From Armatimonadota bacterium (lineage in GTDB: Bacteria; Armatimonadota; SYMT01), in the NCBI GenBank assembly GCA_041690135.1, contig JAWLHY010000011.1:64001-128000 (forward strand): DNA of 64,000 nt. Reading direction: 5' to 3'. Positions 41,756 to 44,700 of the stretch are shown here, piece by piece (position 1 is the first letter of the stretch; each line of letters opens with the position of its first letter). The translations under genes were made by a program, and so were the position numbers. Below the pieces are notes generated by a model. It did no database searches and was not told the DNA's origin. It saw only the letters and a list, made by a program, of their open reading frames with translations.

Positions 41756-44700
41756 TTACACCTGCACGGACCCCGCCTGAGGCCCGCCGACCGGAGAAGC
41801 TGGTTCTGACTCCGCCAGAACCAGGACCAAGCGGCGCTCTTCGGGGTCCAGTTCGACGATCCGGACTGGGAGCGTATCGCCGGTCTGGGGGTCCTCGGCG
41901 GAGGTCCCGGCATTCACCTCCGGGGCCTCTTCCAGGTTAACGAAGCCTTCCAGCCCGCCTTCCAGCATCACGAGAACTCCCTTGGACGCCCGCCTTACCA
42001 CAGTGGCGGCGACCACCGCGCCGGGGCTATACCGCCCGGGTGCATGGGGCCAGGGGTCCGGCTGCGTCTGGCGCATGCTAAGGGAGATGCGCCCCTGCTC
42101 CAGATCGGTCTTGCAGACCATCACCTGGATTTCGTCGCCCTTGTTGAGCATTTCGGTGGGATGCCGGATGCGCGTCCAGGAAAGCTCGCTGATGTGGAGC
42201 AGGCCGTCGATGCCGCCGAGGTCCACGAAGGCGCCATAATCGACGAGCCGGGCGACCACGCCGCTCCGTACCTGCCCTGTGGTAATCGTTCGCAGGGTTT
42301 CCTCGCGGAGTGCGGCCTGCTCAACTTCGAAGACCCGCCGGTGGGAGAGCACGAGTTTCTGACGAGCACGATCCACTTCGACTACCTTCAGGGGCAACTG
42401 AGTGTCCACATATCTTTCCGGGTTCGGCTCGTTGCCGCTGCCGATATGCGTGTTGGGTACGAAACCCCGGACCCCGAGATCCACCACCAGACCCCCCTTT
42501 ACCCGTGCGGTGACGGTTGCCGTCAAGGTTGCATCATTCGCGTGAGCCGTCACCATCCGATCCCAGGTGCTCTTCCAATTGGCGAACTGCTCCATCCACT
42601 CCGCGCACCGTTCTTTCGTCCTGCGGTCAGAATCAGACCAGAAGGTTTCACTCTCCAGCAGGGCGTCCACTCGTGCAATCAGGCTACTCCAGTGTCGGAC
42701 GTACTCTTCGGCTGGGTGCTGTCGTGAACACGGGTGTTCGAGATAGGTAAGAAGCAGGCGGTCTACTCGTTCCCGCGCGGACCCTTCTTGCATCCCCGGC
42801 GCTCCAACGAGTTGGTGGAGTACCATCCCGATCTGTTTACCTGAGACCGGCTCGATCTCACTGCAACCGAAAAGTGCGCCCAGAACGGCCTCCGCCGTGA
42901 GAAGGACCTGATCCTCGAAGCCCTCTCGCTGGAGTTGGCGGTTGAGGCGCGACAACCTCCACATGACATCCGGGTGGTTAGGAAAGTGGCGACACCAATA
43001 GAGGCTGTGGATGAGCAAATCGTCGGAGAGGTTCTTCTCTTTGGTCACCCACGTCAGCACAAAGGTTGCCACTTCGAGATTCCGGTGAGTCAGGAGCCAG
43101 CCAGCCAGTGCAGTAGCCACGTTCGGCAGACCCCCTCCGTTTTCAAGCCACGCACTGTAAACGAAGCTGGCCTCCAGACTGCTGCCGTGCCTGTCAAGCC
43201 AGGCGAGAAGCGCGGCTTCCACGCTCGCCACTGCACCACCGTTGTTAAGGTAAGCAGCAATCACATAGTTGGCATCCAGATGGCCACCGTGCTGTTCGAT
43301 CCAGGCGAGCAGCGGCGTCTCCACCGGTGCCAGCGGGCCTCCGTGCTCCAGCCAGACACGATAGACGAAGTCAGCATCAGGGCGGCTGCCGTGCTGTTCG
43401 ATCCAGGCGAGCAGCGAGGTCTGCACCTGTGCCAGCGTGCCGCCGTGGTTCAGATATCCGGGATAGACGAAGCTAGCTTCCGGAGTGCGGCCGTGCTGTT
43501 CGATCCAGGCGAGGAGCCGCGTCTCTATCTGTGCCAGCGAGCCGCCGTGGTTCAGGTACGCAACAAATACGAAGCGGGCTTCCGGAGTGCGGCCGTGCTG
43601 TTCGATCCAGGCGAGGAGCCGCGTCTCTATCTGTGCCAGCGAGCCGCCGTGGTTCAGATATCCGGGATAGACGAAGCTAGCTTCCGGAGTGCGGCCGTGC
43701 TGTTCGATCCAGGCGAGGAGCCGCGTCTCTATCTGTGCCAGCGAGCCGCCGTGGTTCAGGTACGCAACAAATACGAAGCGGGCTTCCGGAGTGCGGCCGT
43801 GCTGTTCGATCCAGGCGAGGAGCCGCGTCTCTATCTGTGCCAGCGAGCCGCCGTGGTTCAGATATCCGGGATAGACGAAGCTAGCTTCCGGAGTGCGGCC
43901 GTGCTGTTCGATCCAGGCGAGGAGCCGCGTCTCTATCTGTGCCAGCGAGCCGCCGTGGTTCAGGTACGCAACAAATACGAAGCGGGCTTCCGGAGTGCGA
44001 CCGTGCTGTTCGATCCAGGCGAGGAGCCGCGTCTCGACCGGTGCCAGCGAGCCGCCGTGGTTCAGGTACGCAACAAATACGAAGCTGGCTTCCGGAGTGC
44101 GGCCGTGCTGTTCGATCCAGGCGAGTAGCCGCGTCTCGACCGGTGCCAGCGGGCCGCCATGTTCCAGCCATGCAGGGTAGACGAAGCGGGCATCCGGAGT
44201 GCTGCCGTGCTGTTCGATCCAGGCGAGTAGCCGCGTCTCTATCTGTGCCAGTGAGCCGCCGTGCTCCAGCCACGCACGGAAGACGAAGCTGGCTTTCGGA
44301 TGGGTCCGCCACTGGGTTAACCAGTGGCGGACGTGCTCTTCGATTGTAGCGGGTATAAGGCCGGCTTCCAGCCAGGACACCAGGAGAAAATGAGTTTGCA
44401 ACTCAACCGGGTGCCGTTCGATCCAGCCCAGGGCTGCTTCTTGCAGCCATTCCGGGTAGAGCCGGAGACCCCAATTCAGGACAAAGTTGCTCTCATCGGC
44501 CGCCCCGGCTGCGCGCTCTACCCAACTCTTGAAGCTGAGCAGTGCCTCGGCGCCAAGATCCGGCTGTGCCTCGCGAACCAACCATCTCGCGAGATGTCCG
44601 AGGATGTTCTGAAACCAGGTTTCTCGGTGATCTCCTTCCCAGAGCCCTGGATGCTCATGAAGCAGGAGGAACTGATCCCGGGTTTCGAGGAGTGGTGTCC

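Follow-up and report, generated by a model that had tools for sequence, protein, structure and literature searches.

STAND and NLR receptors are thought to gain specificities via their sensor ends, and the donors of new parts are seldom traceable. In ribosomal protein S1 (bS1, RpsA), domain 1 is the ribosome anchor. Among described systems that come close to joining these two subjects is SAMD9, a STAND-TPR protein whose C-terminal OB fold is predicted to be RNA-binding (PMC5445408). For NTP-dependent conflict systems, the RNA binders named include S1-like domains (PMC7159879), and in the literature searched these are mentioned in that role just in passing. Avs proteins that have been characterised respond to phage proteins rather than to RNA (10.64898/2026.01.04.697583), which counts against the reading preferred below. 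Phages exploit S1: as the first-pass annotation of this locus noted, and as is documented in print, S1 is a subunit of the Q-beta replicase, stimulates RegB and is a substrate of ModB (PMC10931766, PMC10468400). In the literature searched, which excludes the supplementary tables of a 2026 STAND survey where such sensors may be listed, no STAND protein is described as having captured rpsA. Presented here is an apparent capture of this kind, found in a 64,000-nucleotide stretch of an Armatimonadota genome (the window).

Architecture and family of the fusion gene

The gene is a single open reading frame on the minus strand (41756..46441, with the stop at 41756-41758), established from the ORF list and its translation; it has 1561 codons plus the stop and a coding-like GC3 of 0.75. 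Its 1561-residue product is labelled P0001, and all positions below are minus-strand positions of the window. The body of P0001 is a predicted Avs-like STAND protein consisting of an Mrr-like nuclease, a P-loop NTPase and 34-residue helical repeats with a cap. This is the tripartite Avs-like order of N-terminal effector, NTPase and C-terminal repeat sensor.

The effector (residues 1-190; 45872..46441) is a putative Mrr-like PD-(D/E)xK nuclease with D52, E65 and K67. Family alignments of 51 and 28 rows show no variation at D48, D52 and K67 and almost none at E65. The AF2 model has a core of helix, three strands, helix and strand, with pLDDT mostly 86-94. Mrr_cat is the domain found in the closest Atlas feature clusters (score 0.93, 18 of 30 matches), which is a lead only. 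Residues 235-640 (44522..45739) form a STAND-type P-loop NTPase with a helical and winged-helix part, as indicated by Walker motifs and by AF2/Foldseek. Walker A is GPGGTGKT at residues 255-262 and Walker B lies around D309 and E312. G255, G258, G260, K261, Y310 and E312 are invariant in the family alignments, and D309 is invariant in alignment A1 and nearly so in A2; the invariant GxxGxGK together with E312 represents the STAND core of Avs-like proteins. Modelling of the N-terminal 640 residues gave a mean pLDDT of 87.9 and a pTM of 0.85, and the top Foldseek matches to this part are SAMD9, Avs4, Avs5, MalT and NLRC4.

The helical repeat array (residues about 690-1131; 43049..44374) was delimited by TRF and by the unit register. 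Twelve units of exactly 34 residues run in register from residue 724, the middle ones near-identical; TRF reports 43287-44300 with a period of 102, 9.9 copies and 87% matches, and the repeat type is common to relatives. Are these repeats TALE-like? Tandem units of 33-35 residues are one mark of that class, and the twelve 34-residue units agree with it. They also show 36% identity to the AvrBs3 repeat region across 399 residues (119 bits), against 19.1 +/- 8.9 bits for column-permuted arrays, of which 1 in 300 reached 119 bits. The definition of TALE-like repeats, however, is the Val7-Gly14-Leu29 spacing (PMC4787788), which has 0 matches in the repeats and 22 in a TAL effector control. PF03377 (TAL_effector) has no match at E up to 10, and only 4 of 193 family proteins match a TAL effector. 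The TALE-like reading was rejected on these grounds.

A family-conserved helical cap (residues 1132-1286; 42584..43048) follows. Its counterpart in the alignments is the cap at the C-terminus of relatives, whose sequences stop 20-40 residues past the conserved W-x-x-W-x4-K motif. In P0001 the last family motif overlaps the first RpsA-like residues at the fusion junction (residues 1286-1292; 42566..42586), and one unbroken helix is predicted by AF2 across it (residues 1271-1301). As judged from the alignments, an S1 array here stands in place of the family's short C-terminal tail. It consists of the equivalents of RpsA domain 2 and the helix leading into it (residues 1293-1372; 42326..42565; by NCBIfam and Pfam), domain 3 (residues 1373-1462; 42056..42325), the best conserved of the three, and domain 4 (residues 1463-1544; 41810..42055), the most diverged and still predicted to fold. 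A tail of 17 residues (1545-1561; 41759..41809) is predicted to be disordered, with pLDDT below 50, and in the alignments neither RpsA nor the STAND family has an equivalent of it.

The STAND family is patchily distributed: it is represented by 31 loci in at least 8 phyla, and of 41 genomes from the host phylum one contains its body. In the relative P0051 the effector position is taken by a caspase-like domain instead of a nuclease. Pfam gives weak nSTAND_NTPase5 and AAA_16 matches below cut-off; P0001 scores 19.7 bits against the 34 bits required for nSTAND_NTPase5 (PF25199), and a precomputed PF25199 label is present on 15 of 52 relatives, which places the family at the edge of that model. 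None of the families in PADLOC-DB 2.0.0 matches the protein at E up to 0.1, and a PDB profile search with the STAND family returned weak P-loop matches only.

Is the gene part of a defence island? Its neighbours in the window are PMT_2, CotH and VTC genes, and the low-GC stretch around it is peculiar to the source genome; no tRNA, no Rfam family and no surplus of promoter- or terminator-like sites were found near it. Among 108 ORFs around 22 family loci there are few PADLOC matches and mostly housekeeping genes. The matches comprise two each to mad2, LmuA, PDC-M48B and a DRT-associated model and single ones to QatC, Aga, CHAT and a Tn7-like model; a phage integrase occurs twice. The context is thus not clearly that of a defence island. 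No relative was found in viral contigs, and matches in phage records were limited to rpsA-like S1 stretches.

Origin and evolution of the S1 array

Collinearity of the last approximately 270 residues with S1 domains 2-4 is confirmed at the sequence level and is far beyond chance. Residues 1288-1548 follow the NCBIfam S1 model PRK06676 (positions 92-353 of 391, E 1.6e-72), TIGR00717 matches the C-terminal part collinearly (positions 86-343 of 516, E 3.9e-63) and Pfam S1 finds three stretches (E 2.1e-41), the best at 1387-1457. The segment aligns with E. coli S1 residues 94-278 and onward, and it shares 55-57% identity, with zero indels, with domains 2-4 of the genome's own four-domain RpsA. It falls below every RpsA equivalog cut-off (best 244.7 versus 368 bits). 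Domain 1 is absent, as the model matches begin only at position 86-92, and 1290 residues of STAND protein precede them. The first-pass annotation had read from the letters an in-frame S1 fragment in a P-loop NTPase protein, running through three consecutive domains, without the first, and starting from WDRMV; the ORF translation and the Pfam and NCBIfam matches bear this out, and WDRMV begins at residue 1293, window position 42565.

The S1 fold was modelled for residues 1269-1561 from an alignment of rpsA rows only, because MAFFT pushed the family caps onto S1 columns. Three OB barrels are predicted, with a mean pLDDT of 85.1. In the domain 2 equivalent 21 of 68 family-fixed columns are changed, and the model barrel spans residues 1305-1366. 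In the domain 3 equivalent 17 of the 73 family-fixed columns are changed, as are 2 of the 32 conserved in the phylum (block pLDDT 89-96). In the domain 4 equivalent 21 of 37 family-fixed columns are changed but only 1 of 11 phylum-conserved ones, and a five-stranded barrel is predicted (block pLDDT about 88-91) with a low-confidence loop at 1508-1514. The last domain had been described at first as eroded. It is the most diverged of the three, as that description implied, but with 10 of 11 phylum-conserved columns kept and a barrel predicted, erosion is too strong a word.

Where did the array originate? A phylogeny of the segment against the host's RpsA, proposed as a check when the fragment was first noted, points to rpsA of the host lineage. 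The tree places the fusion S1 in a clade with six rpsA sequences of the host's taxonomic family (support 95/91), and the grouping holds with a same-order genome included (99/94). Identities agree with this placement: 55-57% to family rpsA, 41-45% to a second S1 paralogue and 30% to the S1 part of P0101, discussed below. The end branch of the fusion S1 is 1.09, compared with 0.03-0.16 for the family rpsA. By AU test, a position of the array as mere sister to family rpsA (p 0.243) and a grouping with the second S1 paralogue (p 0.066) are not firmly excluded. The array therefore appears to be a copy of rpsA from the host's own taxonomic family, inside or adjoining that clade. A domain taken from a host protein is what an integrated decoy would contain, and the array does nest with host-family rpsA, the sister position being open by the AU test. 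The host genome also has a free S1 paralogue, likewise without domain 1. The donor can thus be named here, and as it is rpsA of the host's own family, the capture can be dated relative to the radiation of that family.

The selective regime after capture is also readable: evolution was fast and still constrained. Across about 255 codons there are zero indels and zero stops relative to host RpsA, despite a dS of about 1.1-1.4. Substitutions fall in 10 of 72 conserved versus 24 of 43 variable columns (Fisher p 4.4e-6). Pairwise Nei-Gojobori dN/dS of the array against rpsA is 0.26-0.36, with dS near saturation; the estimate is pairwise only because no close orthologue with the same three-domain array exists in a set of 5.8 billion proteins. 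Of the positions fixed as basic the array retains 23 of 31, and of those fixed as aromatic or His 12 of 14; with a net charge of -7, versus -4 to +1 in parental RpsA, it is slightly more acidic. These patterns, together with the predicted folds, indicate that the array evolved at approximately ten times the pace of rpsA, under purifying selection on the S1 fold and its conserved surface residues. Neutral decay of the S1 part, which would have spoken against the decoy proposed in the first-pass annotation, is not seen.

Other immune-type proteins carry S1 arrays. RpsA-like arrays are present in 5 of the 150 best family representatives, all five without domain 1, and RpsA-collinear arrays without domain 1 are also found in conflict-type proteins with TIR, SLFN-NACHT or GmrSD modules. 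P0101-like nSTAND5 proteins resemble P0001 in having an effector, an nSTAND5 NTPase, helical repeats and one or more S1 domains at the extreme C-terminus. Annotated as 'S1 RNA-binding domain-containing protein', they occur in Pectobacterium, Pseudomonas, Laribacter, Delftia, Photobacterium and others. Endings in 1-4 S1 domains were counted in 54 of 92 with our own HMM and in 55 of 92 by precomputed Pfam, and in most of these proteins the generic S1 domains number just one or two. RpsA domains 2-6 are present in P0101 itself, with the same starting point as in the window array. Their bodies, however, are unrelated to the window protein by BLAST except for the P-loop, and their effectors are weakly LmuA-like, trypsin or TIR. 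With only 30% identity between the two S1 parts, that of P0101 represents a separate acquisition. By sequence comparison, then, the same RpsA-array architecture appears to have arisen repeatedly. Since anchorless RpsA arrays are found in immune-type proteins of several unrelated architectures, a general role for them in infection sensing is suggested. The window gene offers a clean natural case of how immune-type sensors acquire detection modules.

Possible roles of the captured domains

What might an rpsA-derived array do at the end of a STAND protein? The preferred reading, held tentatively, is that P0001 is an Avs-like anti-invader STAND NTPase with host-family rpsA domains 2-4 as a sensor extension that binds ssRNA or ssDNA; its defence function, RNA binding and activation path are what we infer, whereas the evidence above shows the architecture, the donor lineage, the pattern of selection, the predicted fold and the repeated occurrence of the fusion. 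The Mrr-like PD-(D/E)xK nuclease would be the output, the P-loop NTPase the oligomerisation switch and the C-terminal half, with its twelve repeats and cap, the sensor. The short tail of the family would have been swapped for rpsA domains 2-4, domain 1 being left behind, and the resulting module would extend the sensor by binding single-stranded RNA (or ssDNA). RNA of the invader might itself be the ligand, or the module might keep the protein bound to transcripts at which infection is sensed. On binding its ligand the sensor would free the NTPase to oligomerise, and this would switch on the nuclease, with abortive infection as the outcome.

The array might instead be an integrated decoy, as the first-pass annotation suggested. 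It would mimic host S1 and bait phage proteins that bind or modify S1, contact with which triggers the NTPase; replicase subunits, ADP-ribosyltransferases and RIII-like binders are possible candidates. Copying from the host lineage's own rpsA is consistent with this, as is the absence of domain 1, since the array would then not sit on ribosomes. So is the recurrence of such arrays in STAND proteins and in the TIR, SLFN-NACHT and GmrSD proteins. A decoy model has already been proposed for bNACHT11 (PMC11702601), and host EF-Tu is a structural component used by Avs7 (10.64898/2026.01.04.697583). A copy that is 43-45% diverged from real RpsA, on a branch about ten times longer, would nevertheless be odd for a mimic. 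At the basic loop position that corresponds in the alignment to R142, the ModB site of E. coli S1, all six family rpsA have R and the fusion has P, and the one or two generic S1 domains of many related STAND proteins would be poor S1 mimics. Phages that target S1 are known for E. coli only and not for this host, and direct RegB-S1 contact was not detected (PMC10931766). The decoy, one of at least two readings that fit, is considered unlikely. A broader version is a little harder to credit: that anchorless RpsA arrays were repeatedly captured by STAND, TIR, SLFN-NACHT and GmrSD proteins as genuine bacterial decoys for S1-hijacking phage factors, ssRNA-phage replicases included, with the window gene the youngest and most traceable capture.

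Plain RNA binding is slightly favoured over a decoy because related STAND lineages carry generic C-terminal S1 domains, because the host keeps a free S1 paralogue also lacking domain 1, and because the fused copy has diverged and lost the basic residue at the ModB site. The choice between RNA sensor and bait is directly testable, as S1-bearing relatives occur in culturable Pectobacterium and Pseudomonas.

Alternatively, the array could serve as a tether to mRNA, polysomes or the RNA-decay machinery, recognition of a phage protein being left to the helical repeats. Most relatives, 145 of the 150 best representatives, have a full repeat-plus-cap sensor and no S1, so the array is an add-on, and the predicted continuous helix joining the cap to S1 domain 2 would suit such an arrangement. 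On the other hand, the known ribosome anchor is the very domain that is missing, and present data do not separate a tether from direct RNA sensing. This role is judged improbable.

Could the fusion be a mere accident, the 3' fragment of a duplicated rpsA having landed at the gene end and been tolerated without function? The three-domain array has no close counterpart, S1 is found in only 1 of 53 close relatives, the cluster of P0001 is a single sequence, and domain 4 and the tail are strongly diverged. But substitutions track RpsA conservation, the reading frame is intact despite the high dS, all three domains have confident predicted folds and the same architecture arose repeatedly, which leaves an accident decidedly improbable. 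A chimeric contig joining a STAND gene to an rpsA gene is scarcely credible: no public reads span the junction (the one run found, from soil and with 6% of sampled words, is confined to part of the repeats at 43471-43600 and to a conserved S1 motif at 42175-42246 that comes from other organisms; no RNA run is on record), but there are indirect arguments for the join: the 55-57% identity of the S1 part to the genome's rpsA makes a repeat-induced misjoin within the genome impossible, the fusion point keeps the reading frame and falls on a domain boundary within a predicted continuous helix, the GC3 of the S1 part (0.77) is near that of the gene body (0.74) and not that of host rpsA (0.85), and analogous fusions are present in other assemblies.

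Comparison with described systems

Of the characterised proteins, the Avs4 type (PDB 8dgf) shows the same order of Mrr-like nuclease, STAND NTPase and all-helical repeat sensor, and in the structural search with the N-terminal 640 residues 8dgf ranks with the top matches (E 4.5e-9). The window protein differs in that its sensor is built of 34-residue units and ends in S1 OB folds, and it has no PADLOC sequence match. The title of 8dgf names a phage portal protein as the Avs4 ligand.

The animal antiviral proteins SAMD9 and SAMD9L provide the top Foldseek matches (9zjs and 9zjr, E about 1e-9). SAMD9 has an effector, STAND and TPR parts and, at the C-terminus, the OB fold predicted to bind RNA (PMC5445408). 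Its effector is AlbA/SIR2 rather than Mrr-like, and its OB fold is described as cold-shock-like, in contrast to the triple S1 array derived from RpsA in the window protein. With TM-scores of just 0.29-0.33, the likeness is one of parts and not of the whole.

Ribosomal S1 itself shares with the array the collinear domains 2-4, and the array lies in or adjoining the host-family rpsA clade; it differs from RpsA in lacking domain 1, in scoring under the equivalog cut-offs and in being the tail of a 1561-residue protein.

Plant NLR-ID decoys such as RRS1-WRKY also have a host-protein fragment at the end of a STAND/NLR receptor (PMC11702601). In the present case S1 would be the bait, and the S1 fragment is itself a nucleic-acid binder, which makes a non-decoy role equally natural. 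If the decoy reading were true, the guard and decoy logic of plant NLR-IDs would be at work in bacteria too, and the bait would be a translation factor.

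Architecture of P0001 and identity of its C-terminal array

The P0001 gene (window 41756-46441, minus strand) consists of one 1561-codon open reading frame, and the layout of its product, effector, NTPase and repeat sensor, is that of antiviral STAND proteins. Family alignments of 51 and 28 rows show a nuclease motif, D52...E65-x-K67, that is invariant or nearly so, a Walker A sequence, GxxGxGK, at residues 255-261 and a Walker B around D309 and E312. Residues 1-200 adjoin Mrr_cat restriction-endonuclease clusters in language-model feature space, which is a lead only; one relative, P0051, carries a caspase-like domain at the place of the nuclease. 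The AlphaFold model of residues 1-640 (mean pLDDT 87.9, pTM 0.85) has its best PDB matches in human SAMD9, Avs4 with phage portal, Avs5 filaments, MalT and NLRC4, with the low TM-scores expected for multi-domain proteins. PADLOC has no model matching P0001, and the score against Pfam nSTAND_NTPase5 is under threshold.

C-terminal to the NTPase are twelve units of exactly 34 residues each, the middle ones near-identical (DNA period 102, 9.9 copies, 87% matches), and after them a helical cap common to all relatives. The repeats (window 43049-44374, residues about 690-1131) resemble those of Xanthomonas TAL effectors: tblastn matched avrBs3 on plasmids, blastp gave 36% identity over 399 aa, and the score of 119 bits compares with 19.1 +/- 8.9 for column-permuted arrays, 1 of 300 permutations attaining 119. 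The Pfam TAL_effector model does not match the P0001 repeats, these have no Val7-Gly14-Leu29 spacing, and the likeness is limited to 4 of 193 family proteins. It may represent shared ancestry, convergence or nucleic-acid binding. A separate family member, from an uncultured-bacterium assembly (L053:10001-12988), carries a stop codon at position 102 of the match's starting frame and may be a broken copy.

Relatives terminate 20-40 residues past a conserved W-x-x-W-x4-K motif. In P0001 the RpsA-like sequence begins inside this motif, at residues 1286-1292, and the S1 array thus takes the place of the family's short tail; AlphaFold predicts one unbroken helix, residues 1271-1301, from the cap to the helix preceding S1 domain 2. 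The first-pass annotation had read the C-terminal part as ribosomal protein S1, and correctly so: residues 1288-1548 are collinear with positions 92-353 of 391 in the 30S ribosomal protein S1 model PRK06676 (E 1.6e-72) and with positions 86-343 of 516 in TIGR00717 (E 3.9e-63), Pfam finds three S1 domains (E 2.1e-41), and identity to domains 2-4 of the source genome's normal rpsA is 55-57% with zero indels. That the first domain is missing is confirmed by these model matches, which begin at position 86-92; the alignment to E. coli S1 runs from residue 94 on. The description of the last domain as eroded holds only in part: it is the most diverged of the array, but this domain 4 equivalent keeps 10 of 11 phylum-conserved columns and is predicted by AlphaFold to form a complete five-stranded barrel.

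Origin of the array and selection on it

How did the array originate? In the source genome (9.1 Mb in 25 contigs), polA and coaE flank a normal rpsA of four domains. The genome further encodes a second S1 paralogue of 505 aa (G000:C5:94336-95157; locus L003, ORF 1090-2607, minus strand), which is without domain 1, bears an N-terminal extension of its own as well as a long acidic tail, is kept in at least two other host-family genomes and forms a separate clade (100/100). A maximum-likelihood tree was built from 35 rows: the fusion array itself, three further fusion arrays and, from host-phylum genomes, 27 rpsA and 4 second-paralogue segments. In it the fusion array groups with the six host-family rpsA (support 95/91), and these together with the sole same-order genome (99/94). 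Its end branch measures 1.09 substitutions per site, versus 0.03-0.16 for the family rpsA. AU tests support this placement less strongly than the bootstrap values do: they do not reject a tree in which the six family rpsA stay together and the fusion falls outside them (p 0.243), they leave the fusion beside the second paralogue as a borderline case (p 0.066), and they marginally reject it beside the other fusion arrays (p 0.0445). The phylogeny against host RpsA, which had been proposed as a check, clusters the array with family rpsA, the first of these tests leaving a neighbouring position as well. The safe statement is that the array was copied from an rpsA inside the host family or immediately adjoining it.

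The STAND body has a different history from that of the S1 array. It is present in one of 41 host-phylum genomes, and was found at 31 loci over Acidobacteriota, Chloroflexota, Cyanobacteriota, Planctomycetota, Gemmatimonadota, Pseudomonadota, Verrucomicrobiota and Actinomycetota. The P0001 gene sits in a lower-GC stretch. Its downstream neighbours on the same strand (window 36427-41541) encode a PMT_2-like membrane glycosyltransferase, a CotH kinase-like protein and a VTC-domain protein; a search of the six other host-family genomes did not recover the PMT_2-like flanking gene in any, but recovered the next conserved gene in four. The upstream 3.6 kb or so (window 46450-50100) is below its surroundings in GC, lacks tRNAs, Rfam matches and open reading frames of coding-like GC3, and may represent decayed or foreign sequence within the same accessory stretch as the gene.

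Selection was assessed at 178 columns identical in all six family rpsA, binned by phylum conservation. The fusion changes 10 of the 72 columns that are at least 90% phylum-conserved, 25 of 63 intermediate and 24 of 43 variable columns (Fisher p 4.4e-6, extreme bins); of the ten substitutions in conserved columns, all but one are conservative. Among fixed positions the fusion retains 23 of 31 that are basic, 12 of 14 aromatic or His, 68 of 82 aliphatic and 22 of 26 Gly/Pro. Nei-Gojobori dN/dS is 0.26-0.36 for the fusion versus family rpsA (dS 1.06-1.43) and 0.08-0.11 for rpsA versus rpsA at similar dS; omega on the fusion branch is roughly 0.5, an arithmetic value that assigns it nearly all the excess dN and half of a dS near saturation. 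Constraint on the array is relaxed several-fold and still clearly present. Neutral decay, which the first-pass annotation had considered, is not seen in the conserved-versus-variable counts or in dN/dS: the array is not decaying. GC3 is 0.77 in the array, 0.74 in the gene body and 0.85 in host rpsA; the closeness of the first two fits a long residence in the gene.

Recurrence of S1 fusions

A word-indexed search with residues 1-640 returned 52 relatives, none with S1. A HMMER scan of the N-terminal profile against 1.84 billion representatives gave 438 proteins at E <= 1e-30, and S1 HMMs match five of the best 150 of these: P0001, P0274, P0330, P0369 and P0373. The last four belong to the nuclease-STAND family and have two to four RpsA-like S1 domains at their end, domain 1 being absent from each (RpsA model positions 170-345, 79-257, 77-439 and 256-428, respectively); the arrays of P0369 and P0330 begin at domain 2, like that of P0001. 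With only 21-33% identity to the P0001 array, they were acquired separately or much earlier.

A second, unrelated nSTAND5 lineage, typified by P0101 (S1 part at RpsA positions 84-516), has a C-terminal S1 in 55 of 92 proteins by precomputed Pfam, or 54 of 92 by our own HMM, with the last S1 at most 111 and mostly at most 12 residues from the C-terminus. Among its members are Pectobacterium, Pseudomonas, Laribacter, Delftia and Photobacterium proteins that bear the annotation 'S1 RNA-binding domain-containing protein'. RpsA-like arrays are also joined to TIR and ThsB-TIR (P0133), TIR and a protein kinase (P0090), SLFN-AlbA and NACHT (P0120), GmrSD and Hfq (P0146), a trypsin-like protease (P0104) and an archaeal-type ATPase (P0140). 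Domain 1 is present in none of the seven examined STAND-type proteins with C-terminal arrays, whereas three non-STAND or N-terminal fusions do carry it.

Putative function and known systems

What could the array do? Beyond the architecture, donor, selection pattern, predicted fold and recurrence described here, we infer a mechanism: the array would act as a sensor extension that binds single-stranded nucleic acid, the reading that we favour. S1 domains are RNA binders, and RpsA-conserved residues are retained. Related STAND lineages, moreover, make do with a single generic S1 domain or a pair, which suffice for RNA binding but mimic S1 poorly, and the host itself retains a free paralogue of S1 that lacks domain 1.

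The first-pass annotation had proposed an integrated decoy for S1-binding phage proteins, or a binder of phage RNA, and its interpretation is partly supported. A decoy, where the array would bait phage factors that bind host S1, is a less probable alternative with some points in its favour: the array derives from S1 of the host itself and the ribosome-anchor domain is systematically omitted, although the array is 43-45% diverged from real S1. S1 is exploited by phages (PMC10931766, PMC10468400), a model of this type has been proposed for bNACHT11 (PMC11702601), and host EF-Tu is reported to be built into the active Avs7 complex (10.64898/2026.01.04.697583). E. coli S1 R142 is among the residues described as modified by T4 ModB (PMC10468400); the aligned basic loop residue is R in all six family rpsA but P in the fusion, the beta3-beta4 loop of the domain 2 equivalent (window 42430-42441, residues 1336-1339) having changed from G-(K/Q)-(A/V)-R to G-N-E-P. 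This loss carries little weight, because the site is specific to E. coli and T4. An assembly artefact at the junction is argued against, indirectly, by an array far from identical to every rpsA of the source genome, an in-frame join at a domain boundary, a codon composition in agreement with the gene body and other assemblies with the same architecture; coverage by the single public run found is limited to a conserved S1 motif and part of the repeats.

Three points appear to be new, and were not found in the literature searched or in the main text of the 2026 STAND survey, whose supplementary tables may list such sensors: the traceable capture of host rpsA domains 2-4 by a STAND protein, the fast yet constrained evolution of the array after capture, and the recurrent use of RpsA arrays without domain 1 across immune architectures. 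Avs-like STAND proteins as a kind were already known, as was the occurrence of S1-like domains in conflict systems generally. Such domains are listed among the RNA-binding parts of NTP-dependent conflict systems (PMC7159879), and of Tiamat-like and TERNS3 systems. The nucleic-acid-binding reading is further favoured because SAMD9, the best structural match, has, like P0001, the order STAND, helical repeats and C-terminal OB fold, and the OB fold of SAMD9 is described as predicted to bind RNA (PMC5445408).
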